From contig JBGARZ010000001.1 in the NCBI GenBank assembly GCA_044229975.1, positions 704,001-768,000 of the forward strand: a stretch of DNA of 64,000 nt. The letters run 5' to 3'. Shown piece by piece: positions 26,165 through 38,223 of this stretch (positions are counted from its first letter, which is position 1; every line of letters begins with the position of its first letter). The notes under the pieces are model-generated. The model worked only from the letters and a program-made list of their open reading frames with translations. It searched no databases and was not told where the DNA came from. A program made the translations under genes and the position numbers. The stretch comes from Polyangiales bacterium. Lineage in GTDB: Bacteria; Myxococcota_A; Polyangia; Polyangiales; Ga0077539.

Positions 26165-27109
26165 ATGCACAAAGTCATCATCGTGGGCAGCGGCCCCGCG
26201 GGGCTCACGGCTGCCATCTACGCGGGTCGCGCCAACATGGCCCCCGTGGTCATCGAGGGTCTCGGGGCGGACCACCAGCCGGGCGGTCAGCTCATGATCA
26301 CCACCGAGGTGGAGAACTACCCGGGCTTCCCGCACGGGGTCACCGGGCCGAAGATGATGGAGCTGTTCCGCGAGCAGGCCGAGCGCTTCGGGACGACCTT
26401 CCTCACCGAAGACGCGCTGCGCGTCGAGCTGCACGGCCCGGTGAAGCGCGTGTGGGTCGAGAGCCAGACGGAGCCGCTCGAAGCGCACTCCATCATCATC
26501 GCGACCGGCGCCGTCGCGCGCTGGATCGGCGCCCCCGGCGAGAAGGAACTCCAGAACTATGGCGTGTCGGCCTGCGCGACGTGCGACGGGTCGTTCTTCA
26601 AGGGCCAGGAGGTCATCGTGGTGGGCGGCGGCGACACGGCGCTGGAGGAGGCCCTGTACCTCTCCAACCTCGCGAGCACCGTCTACCTCGTGCACCGCCG
26701 CGACACCCTGCGCGCCAGCAAGATCATGCAAGACCGCGCGCTCAAGAACCCGAAGATCAAGTTCATCTGGAACGCCGAGATCGCCGAGGTCCGCGACGTG
26801 GCGGCGAAGAAGGTGACGTCGGTGATCCTGCGCGACACGGTCTCTGGTGAGACGCGCGAGATGCGCATCGACGCGGTGTTCGTGGCCATCGGTCACACGC
26901 CCGCGTCGGGTCTCGTCGAGGGCGTGGTCGACGCGCACGACAACGGCTACCTGCGCGTGGCCCACGGCTCGACCAACACCAACATCCCGGGTGTGTTCGC
27001 GTGCGGCGATGTGGCCGACCACGTGTACCGCCAGGCCATCACCGCCGCGGGCTCTGGCTGCATGGCCGCCATCGACGCCGAGCGCTACGTCTCGGCGCTC
27101 ATCGGCTGA
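26165..27109 (+). CDS. trxB: Thioredoxin reductase
   Basis: GSGPAG, GGQL, VENYPGF, SACATCDG, GGGDTA, YRQAITAAG. Confidence 0.96.
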   Translation: MHKVIIVGSGPAGLTAAIYAGRANMAPVVIEGLGADHQPGGQLMITTEVENYPGFPHGVTGPKMMELFREQAERFGTTFLTEDALRVELHGPVKRVWVESQTEPLEAHSIIIATGAVARWIGAPGEKELQNYGVSACATCDGSFFKGQEVIVVGGGDTALEEALYLSNLASTVYLVHRRDTLRASKIMQDRALKNPKIKFIWNAEIAEVRDVAAKKVTSVILRDTVSGETREMRIDAVFVAIGHTPASGLVEGVVDAHDNGYLRVAHGSTNTNIPGVFACGDVADHVYRQAITAAGSGCMAAIDAERYVSALIG

Positions 27110-27153
27110 CGTTCGCTTTGCGGGCGACGCCGACTCGTCCACAATCCAAAGCC

Positions 27154-27642
27154 ATGAGCGACACCACCGAGACCGTCACCGCGACGGCGAACCCCATCGC
27201 GCGCATCGCGCTGTTCCAGGGTCTTTCGCCGAAGTCGCTGGCCCGCGTGGCGAGCATCACGACGGCGCAGCGCTACCCCATCGGCACGGTGCTCTTCCGC
27301 GCCGGTGACGTGGGCGACCGGCTCTACATGCTGACCGAAGGGCGCGTGCGCATCTCGCGCGAGGTGCCTGGCATGGGCGAAGAGGCGCTCGCCATCATGG
27401 GGCCGGGCGACTACTTCGGAGAGATGGCCGTGATCGACCCGGCGCCGCGCAGCGCCGACGCGCACGTCCACGAGGCGTGCTCGGTGCTGGAGATCCGGAA
27501 GGACGAGATGGAGCACCTGATGCTGGTGCACCGCGACCTCGCCTACGAGGTGCTCTGGAACGTCGTACGCACCCTCACCACGCGACTGCGCGACACCACC
27601 GACAAGGTGACGTTCCTCGCGGTGACCGGGAAGTTCTCCTGA
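27154..27642 (+). CDS. Cyclic nucleotide-binding domain protein
   Basis: FRAGDVGD, GRVRI, GDYFGEMAVID..PRSADA; no HTH. Confidence 0.88.
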   Translation: MSDTTETVTATANPIARIALFQGLSPKSLARVASITTAQRYPIGTVLFRAGDVGDRLYMLTEGRVRISREVPGMGEEALAIMGPGDYFGEMAVIDPAPRSADAHVHEACSVLEIRKDEMEHLMLVHRDLAYEVLWNVVRTLTTRLRDTTDKVTFLAVTGKFS

Positions 27643-27643
27643 A

Positions 27644-28177
27644 CTACTGACTGTTGGCCGCGCCGGGTGTGCGTCGCGTGGCGGCGAACGCGCCGGTGCC
27701 GTCGGGGAAGCGCCCGTAGGTGAAGCCCGACGGGGCGGCGTTGGCGGGGTAGTGCGTCGTCGCGACGACCTGGTTCTCCGGGTCGACGAGGTGGATGTTT
27801 TCGCCGCGGCTGCCGGAGATGCCACCGGCGGTGCCGCGCGCGCAGACGTACGGCGTCGTCGACGACGGGCATGCGCCCTCGAAGAGCACCAGCACCCGAC
27901 CGCCAGCCGGAACCGTCGTCCCCGCGGGGAAGCGGATCGCGTGGCTCAGCTTGGGGAAGCCGTCCTTGCGGCTGTCGGTGACGGCGTAGCCGGAGATGTC
28001 GAGCGGTGTTGCGCCGGTGTTGAAGAGCTCGGCGAAGTCGTCGCCCGAGGCGCCAAACTCGTTGAAGGTGAGCTGCGCGGCGACCGGGTCTTCGCTCGCG
28101 CAGGACGCGCACGCCGCGGCGAGCAGCCACGCCAACCACGGAGTCTTCGGGGGGTTGGGCATCGATGGGTTCCTCAT
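27644..28177 (-). CDS. Lamin-tail-domain lipoprotein
   Basis: Lipobox-like CASC; FNE...DFAELFNTG..LDISGY.VTD; GEN.HL.DP; YGRFPDG; TPGAAN. Confidence 0.8.
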   Translation of the reverse strand: MRNPSMPNPPKTPWLAWLLAAACASCASEDPVAAQLTFNEFGASGDDFAELFNTGATPLDISGYAVTDSRKDGFPKLSHAIRFPAGTTVPAGGRVLVLFEGACPSSTTPYVCARGTAGGISGSRGENIHLVDPENQVVATTHYPANAAPSGFTYGRFPDGTGAFAATRRTPGAANSQ

Positions 28178-28800
28178 GGGGTCGCGGCGGGCGCGCGGGG
28201 CGGGCGCGCGGGGCGAGCGGGCTGGTGGAAGGAGACGGAGATGCCGAGGGTCCACCACTGGATGCTGCTGGTGTCCTGATCGGGGAGCGCGGTGTACGGG
28301 AAGTTGTAGCGGCCGAAGCCCTCGCGGCCCTCCCACACGTGACCCACGCGGAGCACCGGGCCGAGCGAGACGTTGGGGCCGAGGTCGAACGCGTAGCCCA
28401 CGCCCACGTCGAAGCCGGGACGCACCACCGTGCCCGGGAGGTACACACCGAAGTCGGCGTCGGCCCAGAGGCTTCCACGGCGACCGAGCGGTGCGCTCAC
28501 GCGGAGACCGAGGGTGCCCGCCACGAGCTGGATGTTGCGGCGGTCACGAACAAACTGACCGAAGGTTCCGCCGAACTGGAGGTACAGCGGGCCGACGAGG
28601 CGGAGGTCGAAGCGGCCGTGCGTGGTGACGGCGGGCGTTCCGAAGTCCACGCCCGCGTGGTCGAAGTCGTGGATCATCGTGCCCGCGCCGAGCTCCAGGT
28701 TGAAGCTCCAGCGACGCGGCGTGGGGCGACGCGCGTCCTGCGCGAACGCGGCCGAGGGCACGAGCAGCCCGACGAGGGCGAGTGTCGCGAGGGCCTTCAT
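28174..28800 (-). CDS. Exported protein, probable outer-membrane beta-barrel
   Basis: Signal peptide ending AFA; alternating beta-strand patterns; ATGA overlaps with both neighbours. Confidence 0.65.
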   Translation of the reverse strand: MKALATLALVGLLVPSAAFAQDARRPTPRRWSFNLELGAGTMIHDFDHAGVDFGTPAVTTHGRFDLRLVGPLYLQFGGTFGQFVRDRRNIQLVAGTLGLRVSAPLGRRGSLWADADFGVYLPGTVVRPGFDVGVGYAFDLGPNVSLGPVLRVGHVWEGREGFGRYNFPYTALPDQDTSSIQWWTLGISVSFHQPARPARPPRAPAATP

Positions 28801-29492
28801 GGTCGCGTCATGTCCAGGGTCCAGCGGGCGCTCAAACCAAGCATGTTGACGTTGGGCTCGTCGATGAACGACGGCATGTCGCGCATGTAATAGACCCGGA
28901 ACTGCCAGCGAGAAGCCTGCACCGCGAAGCCCGCGCCGACGCGCCAGCGGTCGTGTCCGACGTCGGGGTCGATGCGCGTCCAGTGCTCGCCAAACACGTT
29001 GGCGGTGAAGGGCCCCGGCAGGTGGAACTCCACGTTGATGCGGTTGCGCCACATGCTCCGATCGTCGGCGATGGAGACGCCGTAGTCCTCCTGCGTGACG
29101 GTTCGCCACTGCACGCGCGAGCGAAACTCCACGTCGATGCGACGCCACTCCCACTGCGCCGATGCGTCGAAGTGCAGGCGGTGTCCCTGTTCGAGATCAC
29201 CGAGGCCGTTGCGGCGCCAGAGGTAGCGGTAGCCCACGCCAAGTCGCAGCGGACCGACGACGCGGTAGTCGACCTCCAGCTCCGGGATGACCCGGCGGAG
29301 GCCGTACTCCGAGAAGCGGACGTTCTCGGTGAAGGTGAGCCGCAGTCGACGGATGGGGACGAGGCGGGCGCCGAACTCGGCCCAGTACTCCATGCTCTCG
29401 ACGTTGGCGTGGGCGACGCTGGGGAGCGCGAGCGTCGCGACGGTCACCAGCGCGGAGGCGAAGAGGCGGGCGGGCGATGGAGTGGACGGCAA
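28797..29492 (-). CDS. DUF2490-like outer-membrane beta-barrel
   Basis: Signal ending AHA; GYRY, RSRVQWR, RNRI, RWRVGAG, NMLGL strands; start uncertain. Confidence 0.65.
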   Translation of the reverse strand: MPSTPSPARLFASALVTVATLALPSVAHANVESMEYWAEFGARLVPIRRLRLTFTENVRFSEYGLRRVIPELEVDYRVVGPLRLGVGYRYLWRRNGLGDLEQGHRLHFDASAQWEWRRIDVEFRSRVQWRTVTQEDYGVSIADDRSMWRNRINVEFHLPGPFTANVFGEHWTRIDPDVGHDRWRVGAGFAVQASRWQFRVYYMRDMPSFIDEPNVNMLGLSARWTLDMTRP

Positions 29493-29584
29493 CGGGTGTC
29501 TCCAGAACGCGCCCTGACGCGGGAGCGAGTCTCTTCGGTGACTGAATGGTGACGATGCGCCGGGCGCTTCGAGAATTCCATCCC

Positions 29585-30868
29585 TCAGCGCGCGAGCCAC
29601 GCGCACGGCCCAGCGGGGACGACGGCGGGCGCACTCCGTGGTCGACGGCGTACGAGCTGACGGAGGCGCTGCCAGTCGCGGGTCACCTGCTCGGCGTAGC
29701 GCACCGCGACGTCGGCCTGTTCATCAGCGAAGGCATCACGGTCGGCGGTGACCGCCCCCATCAACGATCGCCGGTGGATGGCCGCGAGGTGGGCACCGAG
29801 CGTTTGCGCGAGGTCATGCAGCGCGGCGAACTCACCGAGCGGACCGCGCAGCTTCGTGACGCGAAGCCCACGCGACGCATCGACCTCCGCGCGCACCTGA
29901 ACGGGACAGCCGCGCCACGTCGTCGCGCCCCACAACGGGTCGGCGTCGGCGTGCGTCCAGAGCGCTCGTCGCGCGGCGATCACCCTCGCCACCGGGTCGG
30001 GTTGGGGCTGCGGCATCGGGGCGTCGACCAGCTCCTTCAGCTCGACGATCACGTCGTCACCCGGGTCGTCCGTCGGACCTCGCAGGAGCAACAGCAGACG
30101 CACGCGACCCAGACTCGCCGTCCCACGACCCAACGCGCGCACCACATCGAGCACCGTGAAGAACACCGCGTCGCGCGGCTCGACCAGCGTCGCGCGGTAC
30201 GACGTCATGAGCTCCGCGGTCGCGTCGCGCACAGGAGCACCCACGTCTTCCAGGCGCTTGTTCGGGTCGTTGCGATCGATGGACCCGCGACGCAAGCGAC
30301 GGGTGCCTCCGTCGAGCACGGTGAAGTCTTCGAGCTCGTCGCGGCGGCTCACGGCCCGTTGTGTGCGCGTGAGCAGCTCGTCGACCACGGCGCCGTTGCT
30401 CGGAGGTGGAGCGCCCGCGATGCCATCGGCGTAGGCCAGCGCGGCGGTGCGGGCGAGCTCGCGGCCGTGGCGGGGAGCGGCGAGGCACAGCGCGACCGAG
30501 AGGCGGCGCAGGTCCCACAGGTACGAGACGGGGCCCGCGCAGTCGAGGTCGTTGGCCTCGAAGGTGACGCGACCGTCGCGACCGACGAGCGTGCCGAAGT
30601 TCTCGACGTGGGGGTCGCCCACGCTGAAGGGGCGCGCGTGCTGATCGTCGAAGCGCGAGCGAGCGAGGCCGGTGGCCGGGTCGAGCCAGTCGCTCAAGAA
30701 CACCGGGAGCGCGGCGCGGTAGAAGGAGAAGGGCGACGCGATGACACGCGACGGATCGAAGCCGTCGACGAGGGAGAGCAGGCGCGCGTCGCGGTCGTCG
30801 CCCACGTCGGCGGTGACGACGGCGAGCGCAGCGGCGAGCAGCATCGCGAGGGGGCGCGTTCGGGGCAC
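29585..30868 (-). CDS. DUF2252-family protein with hydrophobic N-terminus
   Basis: SPFSFYR, GDPHVENFG, NDLD, WDLRRL, GTASLGR.R, ELKE. Confidence 0.8.
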   Translation of the reverse strand: MPRTRPLAMLLAAALAVVTADVGDDRDARLLSLVDGFDPSRVIASPFSFYRAALPVFLSDWLDPATGLARSRFDDQHARPFSVGDPHVENFGTLVGRDGRVTFEANDLDCAGPVSYLWDLRRLSVALCLAAPRHGRELARTAALAYADGIAGAPPPSNGAVVDELLTRTQRAVSRRDELEDFTVLDGGTRRLRRGSIDRNDPNKRLEDVGAPVRDATAELMTSYRATLVEPRDAVFFTVLDVVRALGRGTASLGRVRLLLLLRGPTDDPGDDVIVELKELVDAPMPQPQPDPVARVIAARRALWTHADADPLWGATTWRGCPVQVRAEVDASRGLRVTKLRGPLGEFAALHDLAQTLGAHLAAIHRRSLMGAVTADRDAFADEQADVAVRYAEQVTRDWQRLRQLVRRRPRSAPAVVPAGPCAWLAR

Positions 30869-30904
30869 TGGATCGGGGCGCGACGCTAACAGAGAGCGGC
30901 GGCT

Positions 30905-32962
30905 CTACTCGCTCCGTCCGGGGTACGGGCGGGCCTGCTTGACGACGAGGCGCGCGGGCTCGGCCGTCCCGCCGCGGTCGAACTTGAACTCGACGTCCAT
31001 CGCGTACCAGCCGTTGTTGCCCGCGGCCGGTCCGTACGCCGCGGAGAAGCGCTGGTGGATGGCGGTGAGCGCGGTGCCGAGCTCGTGCACCTGCGTGGGC
31101 GTGAGCACGGTGAAGCCCGCGGGCACCAGGTTGGAGCGCGCGAGGTAGGTCACCGGCTGCCCCGGCTGGCTGAAGTAGTGGAGAAACTGATCGCTCGTGA
31201 TGCCGGGTCGCGGGTGCACCACCTCCACGTCGCCGCCGAACTGCACGTTGACGTAGAGCGCCGGGTCGAGGCCCGACTCGTCGAAGGGGTTGGCCGTGAC
31301 GGCGACGCCGTTCGCGTCCTCGTCGGGGAAGTTGTAGTGCACCAGCAGCGCCATGCCGACGGAGCGGTGGTCGACGCCGTAGTAGCTGCGCTCTTCGTAG
31401 GTGCGGTACGACCACGAGCTCGCGTAGGTCTCGCGGATGGCGTTGAGGAGGTTGTTCCACTCGGCGGGGTCGCCCGAGTGGGACTCGTAACAACCCGCGC
31501 AGGGGAAGCCTTCGAGGTCTTCGCTGTTGGTGCTCGTGCGGAAGCGCAGCGTGCCGTTGGAGAAGTCCGTGCGGATCTTCTCGCGGAGCTGCGCCTGTAG
31601 CCCTTCGTCGACGGTTCCGGCCATGATCGCGTCGTGAAACTCGCCGAGGCGGCTCGCGCGGTACGCCGAGTTGTCGCGAAACTGCGCGTCGGCCTGGAGC
31701 GCCGCGAGGCGATCGTAGAGCCCGTTGTCGCGCATGAACTTGTCGTAGAAGTACACGGGCACCGCGAAGGCCGGTCGCACCGGGACGCCCGGCGTACGCG
31801 CCAGGATGGAGTACTGCGCAGCCTTGCCACCGTAGGCGCGCGTCGCGGCCACGAGGTTGGCGCGCAGGGTCTGCGTGCCGGTGGGCTCCGGCGTGACGTC
31901 CTCGATGTCGACGATGGTCTGCGCCGTGAGGTCGAGCGGTGGGAGGGTGATGGCCGTGGGGCGGTGCGCGGCCCAGTAGGTCTCGGCCTCGGTCTGGGTG
32001 GCCTCGCGGATGGTCCACGCGTCGGCCGTGACGGCGAGCTCGACGAGGCGGCCTTCGAGCGCGCGGAGACGCGCGTTGGTCATCGCGCCGCGCAGTCCCA
32101 TGTTGGGCGTGTGGCGGTTCTGCGAGAGCACGTTGATGTGTGAGAGCGGGGTCTGGAAGGTCTCGGTGATGAGGCCCTGCACCACGGAGATGTCGTTGGG
32201 CGCCTCGTCGAGCACGACGATGTCCTCGAAGGAGAGAAACTGCGACGACAGCGCGTTGGCCGTGCTGAAGCGCAGCCGCCCGAAGGAGGTCGCGATGGTG
32301 AGCGGCTGGTACTCGATGCGCGCGTAGATCTGGTCGGTGGTGATCATCCGCGTTCCCGCGGGGAGGTCACGCGCGGTGACGGCCGCGGTGTCGGAGGTCG
32401 GGTGCACCGCGAGCGCGGGGCCGAAGAAGGCCACCTGCTTCACGGCGTTGTAGAGGGTCGAGATCATCGCGGCGGAGGCGGTGTCGTAGGGCGAGAACTC
32501 CAGCGCCCACACGCCGGGGCCTTCGTAGTGGGTGACGGCCGCGAGGATGAAGCGCCGGTCGGGGCTGAAGTACTCCGTGGTGTTGAACACCGACAGCGAT
32601 GGAACCACCGGCATCCCGTTGCCCGACAGGTGCGTGGAAACAAAGCGGTAGTGGATCTGGAAGCGCTGGCTGTTCTGGAAGTACAGGTTGCCGTTGGTGC
32701 GGTCGTAGACGACCTTCACCGAGCGCGCACCGGGGAGCGTGGTGTCGAGCGGTGCCGACGCGAGGGCGTTGAAGTCCGCGCTGCACTGCACCTGCCGCAG
32801 CGAGTCCGGCGCCATGGTCGGGTCCGCGACCTGGCAGGTGCCCTCGACCAGCGTGACGGGGGTGTCCGTCGTCGCGGCGGGGCTCTCGTCGTCGGTGCAG
32901 CGGGCGAAGGCCAGCAGCAGCGCGAGGAGCCCGGCGAGGTGTGGCGGGAGCCGCGGGTTCAT
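30905..32962 (-). CDS. PEP/pyruvate-binding (ATP-grasp) dikinase-like protein with predicted lipoprotein signal
   Basis: GGKAA, FAVP, RTSTNSEDL..F..AG.YES, NGVAVT, DVEF, KQARP; upstream LITE..TPLSHINV His motif; N-terminal LLALLLAFARC. Confidence 0.82.
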   Translation of the reverse strand: MNPRLPPHLAGLLALLLAFARCTDDESPAATTDTPVTLVEGTCQVADPTMAPDSLRQVQCSADFNALASAPLDTTLPGARSVKVVYDRTNGNLYFQNSQRFQIHYRFVSTHLSGNGMPVVPSLSVFNTTEYFSPDRRFILAAVTHYEGPGVWALEFSPYDTASAAMISTLYNAVKQVAFFGPALAVHPTSDTAAVTARDLPAGTRMITTDQIYARIEYQPLTIATSFGRLRFSTANALSSQFLSFEDIVVLDEAPNDISVVQGLITETFQTPLSHINVLSQNRHTPNMGLRGAMTNARLRALEGRLVELAVTADAWTIREATQTEAETYWAAHRPTAITLPPLDLTAQTIVDIEDVTPEPTGTQTLRANLVAATRAYGGKAAQYSILARTPGVPVRPAFAVPVYFYDKFMRDNGLYDRLAALQADAQFRDNSAYRASRLGEFHDAIMAGTVDEGLQAQLREKIRTDFSNGTLRFRTSTNSEDLEGFPCAGCYESHSGDPAEWNNLLNAIRETYASSWSYRTYEERSYYGVDHRSVGMALLVHYNFPDEDANGVAVTANPFDESGLDPALYVNVQFGGDVEVVHPRPGITSDQFLHYFSQPGQPVTYLARSNLVPAGFTVLTPTQVHELGTALTAIHQRFSAAYGPAAGNNGWYAMDVEFKFDRGGTAEPARLVVKQARPYPGRSE

Positions 32963-33939
32963 GGCGTGAGCGCGAAGCAGTAGAAGCCGCCGTAGCCGCC
33001 GCCCGAGCCCACCGTCGGGATGGCGAGGTTGGGGGGGCCCATCTCGATGAGGCTCACGCCCGGCGCGCAGCCGGCCTCGTCGAGGGACGACATCCAGTGG
33101 TCCATGCTGCCGCCACCACCGCCACCGCCGCCGGTGTTGCGCGGCCAGGAGTGACCCACGCGGGGTCGGCCCTCGGTGGTGCGGTTGCCGAGCGCGCTGG
33201 TCCAGTCGAGGCACGTCGCCGTGGCGCCGTAGAGGCGGCCCGAGGCGTTGCTGCCCGTGAGCATGTCGTGGTTGTCGACCTGCCCTGCGGTCGGATCGGG
33301 TCGATGGTTGGGCACGCCGTCCTCGTTGGGGAAGTCGTTGCGGATGGCCGAGTGCGCCATCGTCGGGCGCGTCGCCGTGATGTCCGAGAGGGTCGTTCCG
33401 AAGAGGCGGCCGAGGCGGTCGTACCAGGGGCCCGACCCGATGCGGGTGATGGCGTGCACCTGGGCGCCCGTCCCGTCGTTGGTCGCGCTCAAGAACGCTC
33501 GCCACTGCTTGCGGCTCGACCCCGGCATGCTGCGCTCGGCGATGGCCGCACAGATGCGATCGGCCCCGCGGATGCCTGCGTTGGCGCCGGTCTCGCCGTA
33601 GCGCAGGTCGCCGCCAAAGCCGCTCGCGCTGCCGGAGAGGTCTTGCAGCGCGCGCAGGCTGGTGACGAAGAAGCTGAAGCGCGGGAGCTCGCCCACGTCC
33701 CCCGCGACGCCGACGTCCGTCACGGCAGTGCCTGCGTCGACCACGGGAGTGATGCCTGCGTCGATCACCGGAGTCACGCCGACGTCGTTCGTGGTGGTGC
33801 TGCCTGTGTCGGTCGGGGTCACCGTCACGACGTCCGACCCGGCGCCGCTGTCGGTGTTCTGGATGATGATGATGTCGCCGCACCCGAGGGCGCCCAACGC
33901 GAGGCAGCCCAGCCAACGGTTCCAGTGTCGTGCGCTCAT
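32959..33939 (-). CDS. Lipoprotein with endostatin/DUF1554-like (C-type lectin fold) domain
   Basis: Lipobox ALGC; FFVTS, GDL, GADRIC, WRAFLS, RIGSGPW, TCLDWTS, FYCFA. Confidence 0.7.
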   Translation of the reverse strand: MSARHWNRWLGCLALGALGCGDIIIIQNTDSGAGSDVVTVTPTDTGSTTTNDVGVTPVIDAGITPVVDAGTAVTDVGVAGDVGELPRFSFFVTSLRALQDLSGSASGFGGDLRYGETGANAGIRGADRICAAIAERSMPGSSRKQWRAFLSATNDGTGAQVHAITRIGSGPWYDRLGRLFGTTLSDITATRPTMAHSAIRNDFPNEDGVPNHRPDPTAGQVDNHDMLTGSNASGRLYGATATCLDWTSALGNRTTEGRPRVGHSWPRNTGGGGGGGGSMDHWMSSLDEAGCAPGVSLIEMGPPNLAIPTVGSGGGYGGFYCFALTP

Positions 33940-33953
33940 GGTCGTCGCTCCTT

Positions 33954-34967
33954 TCATCCGCAGGTGAGGTCGGCGCGGCAGGTGCCCGCATCGCCGCAGT
34001 CGGTGTCGCTGGTGCACGATCGCAGCCCGGGGATCGTCACCGGCGTCTCCACGCCCGACGACACCACCAGCTCGACGCGCCCCGCAGGCAGCGGCGCCGA
34101 CCCGATGGCCTCGCGCGTCACCACCACCGTGGGGTAGCCCGCGACGCCCAGCGCCAGCAGCCGCGTCACCAGGTTGGCCCCGATGCTGAGCTCGCCGTCG
34201 TCCGCGGTGTCGCACTCGATCTTGCCGCGCGTCCCGCCGTGGTGGCTGATGTCCAGGTGCACCAGCACGCGCTGCCCGGTCTGCGTCGGCGCCGTCCACC
34301 GCAACGCAAACGCCGTCCCGGTCGCCAGGTTGAGCGCGCCCGTCGCCAGCGCGAGCGGCGCGATGCCCCGCGTCTCCAGCGCAAACGCCGACGCCCACGC
34401 GCTGCCGCCCGCCTCGACGCGCAGCGCATCGCCCTCCGCAAACGCCGGGTACGGCAGCTCGACGGAGGTCTGATACGCGTTGGCCACGGTGACCATCTCG
34501 AAGCTCGTCGCGCCGTCCGAGGTGCGAACGCCGGTCACCCGCACCGTCCCTACGCTCTGCGACGCGGGGTACGGACGACAGGTGTTGTTCTCGACGCACA
34601 CCGCGCTGCCGCCGCACGGCGTCGCGCAAAACGGAACCCGCGGCGTGACCAGCCGACAATCACCATCGACCGCGGCCTCTTCCCACACGAGCTGCGCGGG
34701 CGTGGGGCCGTCCTGCACGCGACCCACGACCGAGGTGTACCCGGGGCCCGCGTCGGTGCCCGCGATGAGCTGAACCTGGAAGGTTCCGATGACCGCGTCG
34801 GTGGCGACGCCTCCGTCGGTGGCGGTGGTGCCGCGATCGGTGACGGCGCCCGCGTCGGTCACGCTGGCGTCGCTCGCGGGGGTGCTCGATCCGCAGGCGG
34901 ACAGGGCGAAGGCAAGGAGGGAGGGAGCGCACCAGCGGTGCGCACTCGAAGGCTTCAGTTCGGGCAT
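33954..34967 (-). CDS. Cys-rich lipoprotein, unknown function
   Basis: Lipobox LSAC; Cys clusters at the N- and C-termini. Confidence 0.7.
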   Translation of the reverse strand: MPELKPSSAHRWCAPSLLAFALSACGSSTPASDASVTDAGAVTDRGTTATDGGVATDAVIGTFQVQLIAGTDAGPGYTSVVGRVQDGPTPAQLVWEEAAVDGDCRLVTPRVPFCATPCGGSAVCVENNTCRPYPASQSVGTVRVTGVRTSDGATSFEMVTVANAYQTSVELPYPAFAEGDALRVEAGGSAWASAFALETRGIAPLALATGALNLATGTAFALRWTAPTQTGQRVLVHLDISHHGGTRGKIECDTADDGELSIGANLVTRLLALGVAGYPTVVVTREAIGSAPLPAGRVELVVSSGVETPVTIPGLRSCTSDTDCGDAGTCRADLTCG

Positions 34968-34971
34968 TGGG

Positions 34972-35595
34972 TCATCCCTTCTCGACCGACCCATCCCGGG
35001 GACCGGGGCGGTAGGTCACGATGAGCTCGGCGCTGTCGTGGAGGAGGTCGACGTTTTCGACGACGACCCGTGAGCACTGCGCCCCGAGGCGCTTGGAGAG
35101 GTCGGCCAGCAGGGCGGCGCGCTGGTCGGCCTGGAGGAGTTCGAGGCGGTCGTAGCGGACCATCACGGTGTCCTCGTGGCGGCCCCACTGCCCGAGTTCG
35201 AGCACGGCGAGGACGGTGAGCAGCGCGGCGTCGATGAGCACCACCCGCGCGAGGTCGGCGGCGTGGGCCGCGACGCCGTTGAGGATCGCGAGCCCGATGA
35301 CCGTGAAGAGGTACGTGAGGTCGCGGATGCGCATCGCCTCGGTGCGGTACCGGAGGATGCCGAACACCGCGAAGAGGCCGAGCGAGAGGCCCATCTCGAC
35401 GCGCACGCCCGCGAGCATGTAGGCGACCGAGAAGGTGATGAGGTTGAGCAGCCAGTACGTGAACGCGTACTCGCGGCGCGGATAGAGCCGCACGTAGACG
35501 ACCTGCACCACGATGAAGGTGGCCACGAGGTCGAGGAGCAGGCGCGGCGCGAAGGAGACGAGGGCACTGAGGAGAAGCTCGAAGGCGTGGTGCAT
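34972..35595 (-). CDS. DUF4956 membrane protein
   Basis: GLSLGLFAVFGILRYRTE..IRDLTYLF..IGL; TGATG overlap with the VTC gene. Confidence 0.88.
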   Translation of the reverse strand: MHHAFELLLSALVSFAPRLLLDLVATFIVVQVVYVRLYPRREYAFTYWLLNLITFSVAYMLAGVRVEMGLSLGLFAVFGILRYRTEAMRIRDLTYLFTVIGLAILNGVAAHAADLARVVLIDAALLTVLAVLELGQWGRHEDTVMVRYDRLELLQADQRAALLADLSKRLGAQCSRVVVENVDLLHDSAELIVTYRPGPRDGSVEKG

Positions 35596-36461
35596 CAGCG
35601 GCCCCTTTCGATGGCGCGGAGCGACGGGCGGAAGGCGTTGGCGGGCTCGTCGCCGAGCAGCGCGATGGCCATGCAGTACTTGCTGAACGAGAGCAGACGC
35701 GCCTGGTGCTGGCGCAGCGCGCACACGAGCGGTGAGGCGGGGCCGCGGCCGACGTCCTTCACCTCGACGACCACCATGGAGTCGACCACGCGCCGCGCGT
35801 CGGCCCGCTCGAAGGTGACCTGGAAGTCGAGGGTCGCGCGCTCGACGGAGGTTGCGTTGACCAGCATGAGGCGGTGGAAGAGCGTGCGCGCCTGCGGGAC
35901 GATCTCCCCGTCGGAGTAGATGCGCGGCACCGCGGCGAGCAGCAGCGCGCGGTCGGTGGACGTGAGCTCGGTGGTCATCTCGGGGCGCTTCCAGCGGAGC
36001 TTGCGGGTGTCGCCGCGCGCCGTCTTCTCCTTGTATTCGAGCATGGAGATTTCGCGGTCGACGTAGTTGCGCACGCGCAGCTTGAAGCGCGGGCGGCGGC
36101 CCCGGCGGTGGTCGTGGTAGCTGCGGAGCGACGCGGTATCGAAGTAGACCGTGTCGTAGAGGGCGAGGCGCTCTTCGCGCGCGAGCACCACGCGGTAGTC
36201 GTTGGTCAGCGCCCCGACGACGGCGAGCGCCTGGCTCGCGGGCAGCAGGAACTTCCGGTCGTAGCGGCGTTCGAGGGCGGCCCGTTCGAGCTCGGTGGCG
36301 CTGGCGACGGCGAAGCGCGCGGCGAGGTCGGCCATGGGGCCGGTGCGCGGGTCGACGGGAGGGGCGGGCGGGCGCGCGCTCACGATCGGGAAGGACCCCG
36401 AAGGGCGCCGCGAGTCAACGACGATGGGACGCGCGGCGGCGGGTTCGAGGAGCGACTGCAT
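35595..36461 (-). CDS. VTC-domain polyphosphate polymerase
   Basis: RYDRKF, YDTVYFDT, RFKLRVRNY, LEYKEK, ERATLD, VVEVK, FSKYC. Confidence 0.88.
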   Translation of the reverse strand: MQSLLEPAAARPIVVDSRRPSGSFPIVSARPPAPPVDPRTGPMADLAARFAVASATELERAALERRYDRKFLLPASQALAVVGALTNDYRVVLAREERLALYDTVYFDTASLRSYHDHRRGRRPRFKLRVRNYVDREISMLEYKEKTARGDTRKLRWKRPEMTTELTSTDRALLLAAVPRIYSDGEIVPQARTLFHRLMLVNATSVERATLDFQVTFERADARRVVDSMVVVEVKDVGRGPASPLVCALRQHQARLLSFSKYCMAIALLGDEPANAFRPSLRAIERGR

Positions 36462-36605
36462 GAAGACGACAGGGCCTCTCGGACGGCGTGCTGACCGACC
36501 GTGTGGAAGTGCGAGGAGGACTTCAGAGGGCGGGAGCGGCGCCCCTCACTCCATGAATGGGACCTGACCCGGGGTCGCTTCACGCAAAATCCACCGCGAT
36601 GTTTC

Positions 36606-37616
36606 ATGTTGCGATATGACCCCATCGTGGACCGCGCGTGGAGGCTCGCGACGCTGAGCCTGGCGTCGCTGTCGATGGCAGGGACGGCGGCGGGCGCCCA
36701 GGAGACCGGGCGGTTTCGCTACGCCTGGGCGCGCGACGAGGGCGCCGAACGCTGCCCCGACGGCCCCACCATCGCCCGCGACGTCGCGCGGCGGTTGGGT
36801 CGCGATCCCTTCGTGACGGTGAGCGGAGCGCCCTCCATCGAAGCGATGGTGCGCCGCGAGGGGTCGTCCTGGGTGGCCCGCCTCGTGGTGCGCGACGCGG
36901 GCGGCGGCCTCGTCGGCACGCGTGAGTTCACCAGCACCTCGGCCGACTGCACCGCCATCGCCTCGGCCGTCACGCTCGGGGTCGCGCTCTCCATCGATCC
37001 AGAGGCCGCGCTCCGACCGCCCCCGACCGAAGCGCCGCCCACCGCTCAACCAGTGACCCCGCCCGACGTCTCGCCTGCCCGCATCACACCGCCGACTCCC
37101 TGGTGGCGGCGGGCATCGGCGAGCGCGCGCGTGTCCGTGATGGCGGGACTGCTACCGGGCGCGGGCGTCGGGCTCTCGCTGGGCGCCGAGGGTGGGCCGC
37201 TGCCGTTGCTGCGAGTCGGCGCGGGGATGTCGTTCTTCCCCGAGTCGGCGACGACGTCGGGGGCGTACGCGTTCGGGTTGGCGACGGGCTGGGTCACCGC
37301 GTGTCTCGAACCATGGCGCGGTGTGCGCGCGGCGTTGGGGTTCTGCGCGCGGGTCGACGTGGGGGCGCTACAGGCCGTCGTGATGCGGGGCATCCCGCTG
37401 GGTGCCGGACAGCAGGTGTGGGGCGCGGTCACCCTCGCGCCGCGGTTGCGTCTCCACATCGCGGGGCCGGTTGCGGCCGAGCTCGGCGTCGAAGCGATGG
37501 TTCCCTTCGCGCGGCACCGCTTCAACGTCGACAGAAACACCGTGTTTCAGCAGGGAGTCGGCGGGAGCTTCGTGGCGCTCGGAGGATTCCTGGGGCTCGC
37601 CTTGCAGTTTCGCTGA
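36606..37616 (+). CDS. Exported hypothetical protein with C-terminal beta-barrel-like region
   Basis: Signal-like N-terminus, CPD motif, Pro-rich linker, beta-strand-like C-terminus; start uncertain. Confidence 0.65.
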   Translation: MLRYDPIVDRAWRLATLSLASLSMAGTAAGAQETGRFRYAWARDEGAERCPDGPTIARDVARRLGRDPFVTVSGAPSIEAMVRREGSSWVARLVVRDAGGGLVGTREFTSTSADCTAIASAVTLGVALSIDPEAALRPPPTEAPPTAQPVTPPDVSPARITPPTPWWRRASASARVSVMAGLLPGAGVGLSLGAEGGPLPLLRVGAGMSFFPESATTSGAYAFGLATGWVTACLEPWRGVRAALGFCARVDVGALQAVVMRGIPLGAGQQVWGAVTLAPRLRLHIAGPVAAELGVEAMVPFARHRFNVDRNTVFQQGVGGSFVALGGFLGLALQFR

Positions 37617-37641
37617 AGGGGGGACAACCCCAACGACATTC

Positions 37642-38223
37642 ATGGGCCGGATGTACCAGACGCTCGCCAGCCCCCTGACCGCGGACGCCCCCCGAGCGCT
37701 CGACCTCAACGAGGTCTATGCCGCGCACGCGGACTTCGTGTGGGCCTCGCTCCAGCGGCTGGGGGTTCGGCCGAGCGACCTCGACGACATGCTCCAGGAA
37801 GTCTTCATGATCGTGCACCAGCGGCTGCACACCTTCGATCACAGCTCGAAGGTCACGACGTGGCTCTTCGGGGTGTGCCTGCGGGCGGCGTCGGACTACC
37901 GACGTCGGGCGTGGCGTCGGCGCGAGAGCGTCGGCGACGAGCCGGTGGAGGAGCCCGGTGGCTCGCACGAGACGACCCCCGAAGACGATGCAGCAGGCAG
38001 CGAAGCGAGGGAGCGCCTCGACGCCGTGCTCGACGAGCTCGACGTGGAGAAGCGCGCGGTGTTCGTGATGTTCGAGGTGGAGGAAATGGGCTGTGATGAG
38101 ATCGCCGCCCTGGTGGGCGTGCCCGTCGGCACCATCTACTCGCGTCTGCACTCCGCGCGAAAGCAGTTCGAGAAGGCGCTCGCCCGACAGAAGGCGCGGG
38201 ACGTTCATGGAGGTGCGCGATGA
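37642..38223 (+). CDS. ECF RNA polymerase sigma factor
   Basis: DDMLQEVF, TTWLFG, KRAVFVMFEVEEM...EIA...PVGTIYSRL..AR. Confidence 0.92.
   Translation: MGRMYQTLASPLTADAPRALDLNEVYAAHADFVWASLQRLGVRPSDLDDMLQEVFMIVHQRLHTFDHSSKVTTWLFGVCLRAASDYRRRAWRRRESVGDEPVEEPGGSHETTPEDDAAGSEARERLDAVLDELDVEKRAVFVMFEVEEMGCDEIAALVGVPVGTIYSRLHSARKQFEKALARQKARDVHGGAR

Follow-up and report, generated by a model that had tools for sequence, protein, structure and literature searches.

A predicted exported dikinase-type protein with a His-swivel domain, encoded in an array with a polyphosphate-polymerase-type gene in a Polyangiales bacterium

A minus-strand gene (positions 30905 to 32962) in a 64,000-nucleotide stretch of the genome of a Polyangiales bacterium (assembly GCA_044229975.1; this whole stretch is referred to below as the window) was found, by open reading frame (ORF) call and translation, to encode a dikinase-type protein of 685 amino acids. 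The window is part of contig C32 of a 10.0-Mb assembly, which consists of 39 contigs and has a G+C content of about 71%. The product is a three-domain His-swivel dikinase-type protein with predicted catalytic activity, it is predicted to be exported, and its gene lies in an array with genes for a VTC-domain protein of the polyphosphate polymerase type and a DUF4956 membrane protein. On the basis of this context, we judge it a little better than an even bet that the protein is the phosphotransfer enzyme of an envelope module around the VTC-type polymerase and DUF4956. An original prediction, made from the letters of the window, had described an exported dikinase with the domain order of plant glucan water dikinases (GWD), acting on an envelope glycan in a compartment that normally lacks ATP. 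This prediction is partly supported: it was right on the architecture and the predicted export, while the glycan substrate found no support and the polyphosphate module is the stronger lead. The array with VTC and DUF4956, and its recurrence in 39 of 80 orthologous loci, had not been taken in, and this linkage bears directly on the paradox, raised by that same prediction, of a dikinase working without ATP.

His-swivel dikinases are known as ATP-spending enzymes of the cytoplasm or the plastid. A full catalytic set in combination with a signal peptide, extracellular-type fusions, and exported partners raises the question of the phosphoryl donor outside the cell, and the linkage with VTC, DUF4956, HlyD, OEP, and CotH genes offers a testable answer to it, besides pointing to a second, polyphosphate kinase (PPK)-independent polyphosphate route in bacteria. 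If confirmed, the module would represent a new mode of envelope energy supply and would provide a function for DUF4956 and bacterial VTC proteins; the protein itself would offer a bacterial counterpart, built in the order of GWD, to work on the origin of that layout. The literature searched, which excluded subscription journals, yielded no report of a His-swivel dikinase that is exported, of the function of DUF4956, or of export by bacterial VTC proteins, and the GWD1 paper (PMC13553574) does not use the word "bacteria" in its main text.

Domain architecture and predicted export

The start codon of the gene is supported by its relatives, which begin at the same place, and its ATG overlaps the stop codon of the upstream gene (32959 to 33957) in an ATGA arrangement. 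In the translated protein, the motif GLITETFQTPLSHINVLSQN (residues 263 to 282) contains the predicted phosphoryl carrier, His275, and precedes an ATP-grasp domain recognized by the Pfam model PPDK_N (PF01326) at residues 377 to 679 (E = 4.7e-21; score, 75.8 bits; cut-off, 27). All 28 of the close relatives compared carry His275, and its conservation across 116 distant representatives is 95%, so the motif is not a product of chance. Neither Pfam nor NCBIfam produced a match to PEP-utilizers_C or any other barrel family in this protein, and with its last residue, 685, only six residues past the ATP-grasp domain, it has no phosphoenolpyruvate (PEP)/pyruvate barrel. A phosphohistidine motif N-terminal to the ATP-grasp domain and a missing C-terminal pyruvate-binding barrel were both part of the original prediction and are confirmed, with the His codon at the position given there (32138 to 32140); the likeness to GWD was predicted as well, and the order of acceptor-type, His, and ATP-grasp domains does match that described for GWD1 (PMC13553574).

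A His region without a swivel fold had been named beforehand as an outcome that would refute this reading. A first model, based on the 28 close relatives, was poor at residues 253 to 290 (predicted local distance difference test [pLDDT], <50). Refolding of residues 35 to 345 with 133 sequences, at identities down to about 28%, gave a model with a pLDDT of 96.4 and a predicted TM score (pTM) of 0.88. Foldseek matched about 110 residues with the His domain of rifampin phosphotransferase (RPH; E = 1.1e-4; root mean square deviation [rmsd], 3.4 Å) and also placed the His segment on pyruvate kinase, Enzyme I, and the isolated carrier domain of pyruvate phosphate dikinase (PPDK). A second, independent aligner returned RPH (5hv1_A; score, 11.7; 2.5 Å over 97 residues), with residues 180 to 288 of the model (214 to 322 of the protein) on residues 753 to 867, followed by pyruvate kinase 2e28 (10.8; 2.9 Å over 101 residues), three Enzyme I entries (9.4 to 10.4), PPDK 2fm4 (8.3; residues 395 to 511), and maize PPDK 1vbg (8.3; residues 398 to 518). 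With two structure aligners finding it, the predicted model of the His segment adopts a phosphohistidine swivel fold, and the reading is thus not refuted on this point.

Profile comparisons of the same segment gave weak matches. The GWD1_pHisD profile (PF22973) matched residues 261 to 325 with an E value of 0.16 and 12 bits (cut-off, 27), and only positions 49 to 113 of the profile were spanned. Across the 28 members, this profile reached an E value of ≤1 in 13 (best, 0.0068), and the PEP-utilizers profile matched 4 (best, 0.0035), all below threshold. An hhalign comparison of the His segment with four mobile domains encoded in the same genome did align His with His, but the match was weak (E = 0.0019; probability, 14.5%), so the swivel claim rests on the fold search.

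The ATP-grasp domain gave stronger structural matches, with Foldseek E values of 1.3e-11 for RPH, 5e-10 for PEP synthase, and 1e-4 for PPDK. NCBIfam models for PEP synthase, RPH, and PigC/RedH touch the ATP-grasp part alone and stay far under their cut-offs: the RPH model NF041857 scored 44.6 bits against a cut-off of 999, within the grasp region alone, and the PEP synthase models matched via their first ~230 positions alone. In the printed alignment with RPH-Lm (5fbs_A, native numbering), K380, R475, and S494 correspond to Lys22, Arg117, and Thr136, residues that position the triphosphate in that enzyme and of which Lys22 is essential (PMC4844700). Four further residues (D656, E658, Q676, and R678) are common to this protein, its paralogue, and a canonical stand-alone ATP-grasp subunit from the same genome; E658, which lies in a D-x-E motif, was equated with Glu297 of RPH-Lm by that motif and not by the printed alignment. 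The main text of the RPH paper names no adenine or ribose contacts (PMC4844700). Together with H275, the nucleotide-site residues are at least 90% conserved in the 133-sequence alignment (~28% identity at lowest), and the predicted triphosphate- and Mg-binding residues of the ATP-grasp domain are conserved. A second feature of this domain, C488-x-x-C491, has its cysteines where RPH-Lm has Phe130 and Gln133. It was present in 120 of 120 close relatives versus 9 of 119 distant ones with a recognizable motif, and since it is confined to one subfamily, we rejected it as a catalytic element. It is one of two invariant Cys pairs in the close family, the other being C43/C60.

For the N-terminal domain (residues 35 to 213), the model shows a confident mixed alpha/beta fold of about 180 residues with eight strands and seven helices. 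Neither Pfam nor the protein atlas gave a family match (atlas score, 0.76; threshold, 0.9), no solved structure was matched in a fold search that barely covered this part, and comparison of the C-terminal 135 residues with PDB sequences returned nothing significant (ribosome-recycling factor, at an E value of >1). Among the 116 distant relatives, only eight positions of the domain reach at least 80% identity (K83, H104, F107, F126, Y131, R136, E155, and D160). By its position, the domain corresponds to the acceptor-side domain that directly precedes the His domain in GWD1, and its small polar cluster would be in keeping with a second active site.

A Cys residue follows a signal-type stretch in 119 of 120 relatives, mostly with A, G, or S at position -1, so the family appears to behave like lipoproteins in its signal. 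In a lipobox, the residue just ahead of the Cys (-1) has to be small. Ten of the 120 relatives, including the protein studied here (FARC), carry an Arg at this position, which breaks the rule. Its signal reads LLLAFA/RC, with an A-x-A site for signal peptidase I, and the protein may be cut by that enzyme at AFA/RC; lipidation of this particular member is uncertain. Of the lipoprotein-like N terminus originally described, the signal peptide with its conserved Cys was borne out, while the Arg leaves the lipid anchor in doubt.

Fusions were surveyed in 30 relatives that had been chosen for extra length from the 150 best representatives. A lamin-tail domain (LTD) is fused to the N-terminal side of the dikinase core in eight of them and CarboxypepD_reg occurs in five, while fn3, Calx-beta, PKD, Big_9, Ig_2, RTX repeats, cadherin-like domains, and an ADAMTS spacer were each found in at least one; matches to a type IX secretion system (T9SS) sorting tail and to Big_5 were under the cut-off, and eight of the 30 have no extra domain. 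By family assignment, the added domains are of surface or extracellular types. Four giant proteins from metagenomic sources, P0139 (3,227 amino acids), P0267 (2,032), P0270 (1,740), and P0271 (1,746), embed the three-domain core next to fn3/Calx-beta; PIG-L deacetylase, methyltransferase, and receptor-L/leucine-rich repeat (LRR) domains; Ser/Thr kinase and Sel1; and PKD/Big_9/Sde0182_C repeats.

Export of the protein is predicted, a view supported by the conserved signal and Cys, the extracellular-type fusions, and the exported neighbours. The opposite view, that this is a cytoplasmic dikinase with a chance hydrophobic N terminus, or else a binding pseudoenzyme, could draw on the Arg that breaks the lipobox, yet it is hard to reconcile with a signal and Cys in 119 of 120 relatives, with fusions that include RTX repeats and a subthreshold T9SS tail, with the exported neighbours, and with catalytic residues conserved down to ~28% identity; we regard it as extremely unlikely.

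Conserved gene context and the polyphosphate link

Gene neighbourhoods were compared at 80 orthologous loci, whose dikinases are 57 to 75% identical to the one in the window. Their conserved core has the order lipoX, DUF1554-like gene, dikinase gene, in which lipoX and the DUF1554-like gene encode Cys-rich lipoproteins; the DUF1554-like gene was present at 70 loci by tblastn and at 69 by hidden Markov model (HMM), and lipoX was present at 65 by either method. Other genes of the array in the window are less widespread, with DUF2252 linked at 3 loci, DUF2490 at 6, and separate LTD lipoprotein genes at 25. The notion that the polyphosphate link is local only, which tblastn counts at an E value of ≤1e-5 had suggested (VTC at 3 loci and DUF4956 at 6), was discarded as an undercount, since these proteins are only 29 to 35% identical elsewhere. 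In a replacement survey, in which iterated HMMs were run over all ORFs of the 80 loci and sampled ORFs were checked by Pfam, DUF4956 was found at 34 loci and VTC at 25, either of them at 39, and both at 20. Flanks of at least 4 kb on both sides were available at 64 loci, and 34 of these had one or the other. All 18 sampled VTC/DUF4956 ORFs were confirmed by Pfam, two of the DUF4956 matches being just under the cut-off.

Further components emerged from the unbiased annotation of five loci and were then counted by HMM over all 80. An HlyD-type adaptor is encoded at 31 loci (27 of the 39 polyphosphate-linked and 4 of the 41 unlinked ones; 4 of 5 confirmed in a Pfam spot-check) and an OEP (TolC-like) channel at 25 (23 linked and 2 unlinked; 4 of 5). 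CotH kinase genes are present at 18 loci (11 linked and 7 unlinked; 5 of 5), and phytase-like genes are present at 24 (21 linked and 3 unlinked), all five of those checked matching in Pfam and one scoring over the cut-off. The usual order is lipoX, DUF1554-like, dikinase, VTC and/or CotH, DUF4956, HlyD, phytase-like, OEP; in the clade of the window, DUF2490 and a second barrel take the place of HlyD and OEP. At least one module component was found at 53 of the 80 loci. One of the five annotated loci, from Cystobacter (L013), showed none. In Polyangium, a CotH kinase gene is located between the dikinase and DUF4956 genes, and the HlyD-type adaptors of Sorangium and Polyangium carry a fused phytase-like region, mostly under the Pfam cut-off (positions for these two observations: L024 6947-8596 [+], L045 7631-10009 [+], and L024 9260-11353 [+]).

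The linkage extends beyond close orthologues. Of 201 genomes sampled from the phylum, 76 carry the family defined by residues 35 to 345, as do 54 of 143 genera, with up to six copies per genome. In these 201 genomes, DUF4956 and a family member are no more than 10 kb apart at 10 loci, which are spread over eight genomes, and share a strand at nine of these loci. Among distant loci, a VTC/DUF4956 pair precedes the cassette in another lineage, and at a further locus it immediately follows a paralogue of 30% identity. When the linked state was mapped on a tree of the window and 79 loci, it changed 20 times or more, with 13 changes forced by well-supported branches (mean of shuffled states, 27). 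Because of these repeated changes, the linkage is not a single-clade trait, although short flanks add noise.

Known systems, proposed function, and alternatives

No CBM (carbohydrate-binding module) family was matched at an E value of ≤1 by the protein or the 28 members, whereas GWD carries CBM45 and phosphoglucan water dikinase (PWD) carries CBM20. Other differences from GWD are that the GWD1_pHisD score is under its cut-off, that export is predicted in place of a plastidial location, that the protein has no Cys pair beside the His, its CxxC being located in the ATP-grasp domain, and that its gene context is one of polyphosphate and not of starch. In addition, the central domain of GWD1 (residues 483 to 926, about 440 residues) is described as clusters of helices (PMC13553574), in contrast to the ~180-residue mixed alpha/beta domain found here; it was not among the fold-search matches listed, an absence that by itself carries little weight. 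On the other side, GWD1 and PWD share with our protein the order of acceptor-side, His, and C-terminal ATP domains, the lack of a PEP/pyruvate barrel, a short RPH-like ATP domain, and a swivelling His predicted on a short helix, as far as the GWD1 paper describes these features (PMC13553574). With no CBM, no helical central domain, and a subthreshold profile match, the protein is not a member of GWD/PWD, a comparison made through the profile and the published description of GWD1.

These observations also bear on whether the protein is a stand-alone, ATP-driven, GWD-like envelope glycan dikinase, with the DUF1554-like protein as a lectin-type targeting subunit and the polyphosphate genes as bystanders. 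The common domain order with GWD1 and the ATP-grasp domain that is closer to RPH than to PPDK, as reported for GWD1 (PMC13553574), would fit, as would the larger number of members reached by the GWD His profile than by PEP-utilizers (13 versus 4 of 28, all below threshold), the co-linear DUF1554-like gene at 70 of 80 loci, and the fusion of some distant relatives to the carbohydrate-related domains PIG-L, Sde0182_C, and CarboxypepD_reg. However, the missing CBM and an N-terminal domain unlike the helical central domain of GWD speak against a glycan substrate, the lectin fold of the DUF1554-like partner is unsupported, and no glycan-synthesis genes turned up in the conserved surroundings at the five loci that received unbiased annotation, the recurrent partners being VTC, DUF4956, HlyD, OEP, and CotH instead. 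Moreover, the LSH motif and a His domain before the grasp domain are also found in a split dikinase of the same genome, and the source of ATP is left unexplained. We therefore consider a glycan dikinase unlikely.

With RPH-Lm (5hv1/5fbs), the protein shares the fold of both common domains (His and ATP-grasp). RPH-Lm is cytoplasmic, its order is ATP-grasp, rifampin-binding, His, and the rifampin-binding domain has no counterpart here. PEP synthase and PPDK have the order ATP-grasp, His, TIM barrel, whereas our protein is barrel-less, permuted, and equipped with a signal peptide. It is consequently neither a PEP synthase/PPDK (no barrel, permuted) nor an RPH (different order, no rifampin-binding domain).

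In terms of gene context, the nearest described system is the CotH/polyphosphate polymerase/DUF4956 set of Gram-positive pel loci, which are described as accessory genes of unknown function (Whitfield et al. 2020, PMC7112168). Both that set and the loci studied here cluster an exported kinase with a VTC-type polymerase and DUF4956, and CotH itself occurs at 18 of our 80 loci. The Gram-positive set differs in that it is described with CotH in place of a His-swivel dikinase and in that it lacks the lipoX/DUF1554-like cassette, HlyD/OEP, and beta-barrels (PMC7112168). The eukaryotic VTC complex combines the Vtc4 catalytic domain with a transmembrane channel, and in the window a VTC catalytic domain is likewise encoded beside a membrane protein; the bacterial partner, in contrast, is DUF4956 rather than a Vtc1-type membrane domain, and export in bacteria is presumed. 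VTC coupled to an exported dikinase is not known to have a eukaryotic counterpart.

How such a module could operate is suggested by the described systems. In RPH and PPDK, the beta-gamma pyrophosphoryl group of ATP is transferred to the His at the grasp domain, after which the His swings over to the acceptor domain (PMC4844700). GWD1 has been proposed to shuttle likewise between its ATP and central domains (PMC13553574), and the yeast VTC complex, which draws on cytosolic ATP for polyphosphate synthesis, has a channel of its own through which the polymer is passed (PMC10657179). Judging from the linkage, polyphosphate would be synthesized from ATP by the VTC protein in the cytoplasm and handed outward by DUF4956, accompanied in most relatives by an HlyD adaptor and an OEP channel and, in the window, by DUF2490 and a second barrel. 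The exported polyphosphate would be the source or the object of phosphoryl chemistry outside the cell. A phosphoanhydride donor in the ATP-grasp site would pass a phosphoryl (or pyrophosphoryl) group to His275, whose domain would then swing to the N-terminal domain, where K83, H104, Y131, R136, E155, and D160 would form the second active site, and the group would be handed to an envelope acceptor, with lipoX and the DUF1554-like lipoprotein as predicted helpers.

Several points weigh against this scheme. Neither VTC nor DUF4956 was found in the available flanks of 41 of the 80 loci, and although 11 of these 41 are short-flanked, the polyphosphate link is no obligatory one, at any rate in cis. 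Of the family-bearing genomes, 65 of 76 encode DUF4956, versus 35 of 125 family-free ones, but the corresponding odds ratio of 15 is not corrected for ancestry, and 11 of the 76 family-bearing genomes have no DUF4956 match. The conserved ATP-grasp residues argue for a nucleotide in that site. Polyphosphate export by bacterial VTC/DUF4956 would be an analogy to yeast rather than a finding, the acceptor-site role of the N-terminal domain is suggested by position and conservation alone, and the lipobox of this protein is atypical, with no small residue at -1.

The same linkage (39 of 80 loci) could be read in reverse, with the N-terminal domain binding exported polyphosphate and His275 passing a phosphoryl or pyrophosphoryl group to AMP, so that the ATP regenerated outside the cytoplasm would feed exported kinases such as CotH. 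K83, H104, and R136 would suit a polyanion, CotH genes occur at 18 of 80 loci and, in Polyangium, between dikinase and DUF4956, and PPDK is reported to form ATP in bacteria and protozoa (PMC5371819). Basic residues, however, are to be expected at any phosphoryl-acceptor site, a periplasmic source of AMP would be needed, and the Gram-positive CotH/VTC/DUF4956 clusters are described without such a dikinase (PMC7112168). On balance, we doubt that the enzyme runs in this direction. We also know of no precedent for a His-swivel enzyme that takes its phosphoryl group from polyphosphate, which counts against it.

On a larger scale, one might speculate, though we give the idea only a small chance, that myxobacteria possess an energy line spanning the envelope, in which VTC makes polyphosphate, DUF4956 exports it together with HlyD/OEP (or DUF2490-type barrels), and the dikinase reconverts it. 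The dikinase would then either yield ATP from AMP or transfer phosphoryl groups directly, powering extracytoplasmic kinases such as CotH. If true, such a line would explain in general terms how the cost of phosphorylation outside the cytoplasm is met.

Finally, water might be the acceptor, making the protein an exported pyrophosphohydrolase, which would act on nucleotides or polyphosphate to release phosphate for uptake, with a structural or regulatory N-terminal domain. RPH mutants retain ATP pyrophosphatase activity without drug transfer (PMC4844700), phytase-like genes lie near 24 of 80 loci (most of them under the Pfam cut-off), and LTD-linked relatives might be counted here as well. Since three domains, a swivel mechanism, and a cluster of conserved polar residues in the N-terminal domain would be elaborate for hydrolysis, and the linkage with a polyphosphate synthase fits the use or placement of polyphosphate better than scavenging, we regard this possibility as very unlikely and retain phosphotransfer to an envelope acceptor as the favoured reading.

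Gene array of the window, family size, and paralogues

The dikinase gene is one of nine same-strand genes, from VTC to LTD, that either overlap by 1 to 4 nucleotides or are separated by gaps of 4 to 36 nucleotides, the start of the DUF2490 gene being uncertain (Table 1). Seven of the nine encode export signals. An identical set of nine genes in identical order was found in a genome of the same family (locus L099).

Table 1. Features of the dikinase-type protein and of the gene array in the window (a slash marks the predicted cut in signal peptides)
Feature	Positions	Strand	Basis or remark
VTC-domain protein (polyphosphate-polymerase-type), no signal peptide	35595..36461	-	Pfam VTC, E 9.2e-21, over cut-off; first gene
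DUF4956 membrane protein	34972..35595	-	Pfam, E 1.9e-45; start overlaps VTC stop by 1 nt
lipoX, Cys-rich lipoprotein	33954..34967	-	lipobox LSAC
DUF1554-like Cys-rich lipoprotein	32959..33957	-	lipobox ALGC; directly upstream of dikinase
Exported (predicted) dikinase-type protein, P0001	30905..32962	-	ORF, translation
Signal peptide ending AFA/RC, residues 1-22	32897..32962	-	hydrophobic stretch, then Cys22
N-terminal domain, residues 35-213, presumed acceptor site	32324..32860	-	confident predicted mixed alpha/beta fold
Phosphohistidine swivel domain (predicted model), residues 214-329	31976..32323	-	fold search
His275 codon, predicted phosphoryl carrier	32138..32140	-	conservation; alignment to canonical mobile-domain His
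ATP-grasp nucleotide-binding domain, residues 377-679	30926..31834	-	Pfam PPDK_N, Foldseek
Subfamily-specific C488-x-x-C491 in ATP-grasp domain	31490..31501	-	alignment to RPH-Lm, relatives
DUF2252 protein, signal peptide VTA/D	29585..30868	-	Pfam, E 5e-39; 36 nt past dikinase stop
DUF2490 outer-membrane-type protein, signal AHA/N	28797..29606	-	Pfam, E 4.2e-11
Small beta-barrel-like exported protein	28174..28800	-	signal AFA/Q; ATGA overlap
LTD (lamin-tail-domain) lipoprotein, last array gene	27644..28177	-	Pfam LTD, E 5.5e-9; lipobox; ATGA overlap

The DUF1554-like protein corresponds to what had originally been called a lectin-fold lipoprotein next to the dikinase. A protein with a lipobox does adjoin it, but neither Pfam nor PDB sequence matches supported a lectin fold. 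DUF1554 matches were subthreshold in 26 of 27 members, and the best PDB sequence matches of the profile (DARPins, E = 0.45) were not significant. A conserved block, G-[IL]-R-G-A-D..C...W-R-A-F-L-S, is reminiscent of endostatin-type domains, although Pfam reported Endostatin in only 1 of 27 members, at an E value of 0.24. The protein has four invariant Cys residues, and a glycine-rich insert of a few to about 60 residues (the latter in L014) separates its conserved blocks (alignment columns ~225 to 300). The second lipoprotein, lipoX, has nine invariant Cys residues, an invariant DISHHGG motif, and a small Cys-rich C-terminal knot; the motif and cysteines could represent a metal site. No Pfam family and, by sequence, no relative of solved structure was found for lipoX, and its protein-atlas matches were limited to clusters of myxobacterial hypothetical proteins. 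As for the remaining genes, the DUF2252 protein, presumably a member of the protein-kinase-like clan, had no PDB relatives by sequence, and the small barrel-like protein showed a weak match to the Autotransporter beta-domain (E = 0.0025, under the cut-off).

Divergently oriented from the array are genes for a 371-amino-acid protein (36501 to 37616, plus strand) and an extracytoplasmic function (ECF)-type sigma factor (Sigma70_r2/r4; 37402 to 38223, plus strand). The same divergent pair lies beside the array in the genome with the identical nine genes (G120; L099 313-1873, minus strand), with 71% and 47% identity, and the 371-amino-acid protein is also encoded at L005. We consider this pair a candidate regulator of the module. 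A promoter and terminator scan of positions 27000 to 37500 was uninformative, with no promoter-like sites and one terminator-like site (plus strand, 27092; 2.7 in shuffles).

Beyond the orthologous loci, a word-indexed search returned 1,965 proteins at an E value of ≤0.001 among 7,997 candidates scored, and an exhaustive search returned 3,436 clusters (50% identity) at 0.001, 2,122 at 1e-10, and 974 at 1e-30. Most of the alignments span query residues 50 to 680, i.e., all three domains. The entries bear generic database names ("PEP/pyruvate-binding domain-containing protein," "pyruvate, water dikinase," and "hypothetical").

Two related systems are encoded elsewhere in the same genome. The first, a paralogue of 653 amino acids (L088 472-2433, plus strand, equivalent to G000:C33 ~429716-431677), is 38% identical over the N-terminal and His domains; its lipobox (VFALGC) is canonical, it shares the three-domain layout and has an FQTPLSH motif, and it lacks both Cys pairs. 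The second is a split dikinase (L084, G000:C13:10358-13573) composed of two plus-strand ORFs (31-1737 and 1734-2546) with a stop/start overlap, in which a 568-amino-acid protein ending in a canonical mobile His domain (GGQLSH) is followed by a 270-amino-acid stand-alone ATP-grasp protein. Since this split dikinase has both an LSH motif and a His domain ahead of the grasp domain, we rejected either feature as a mark of kinship with GWD.

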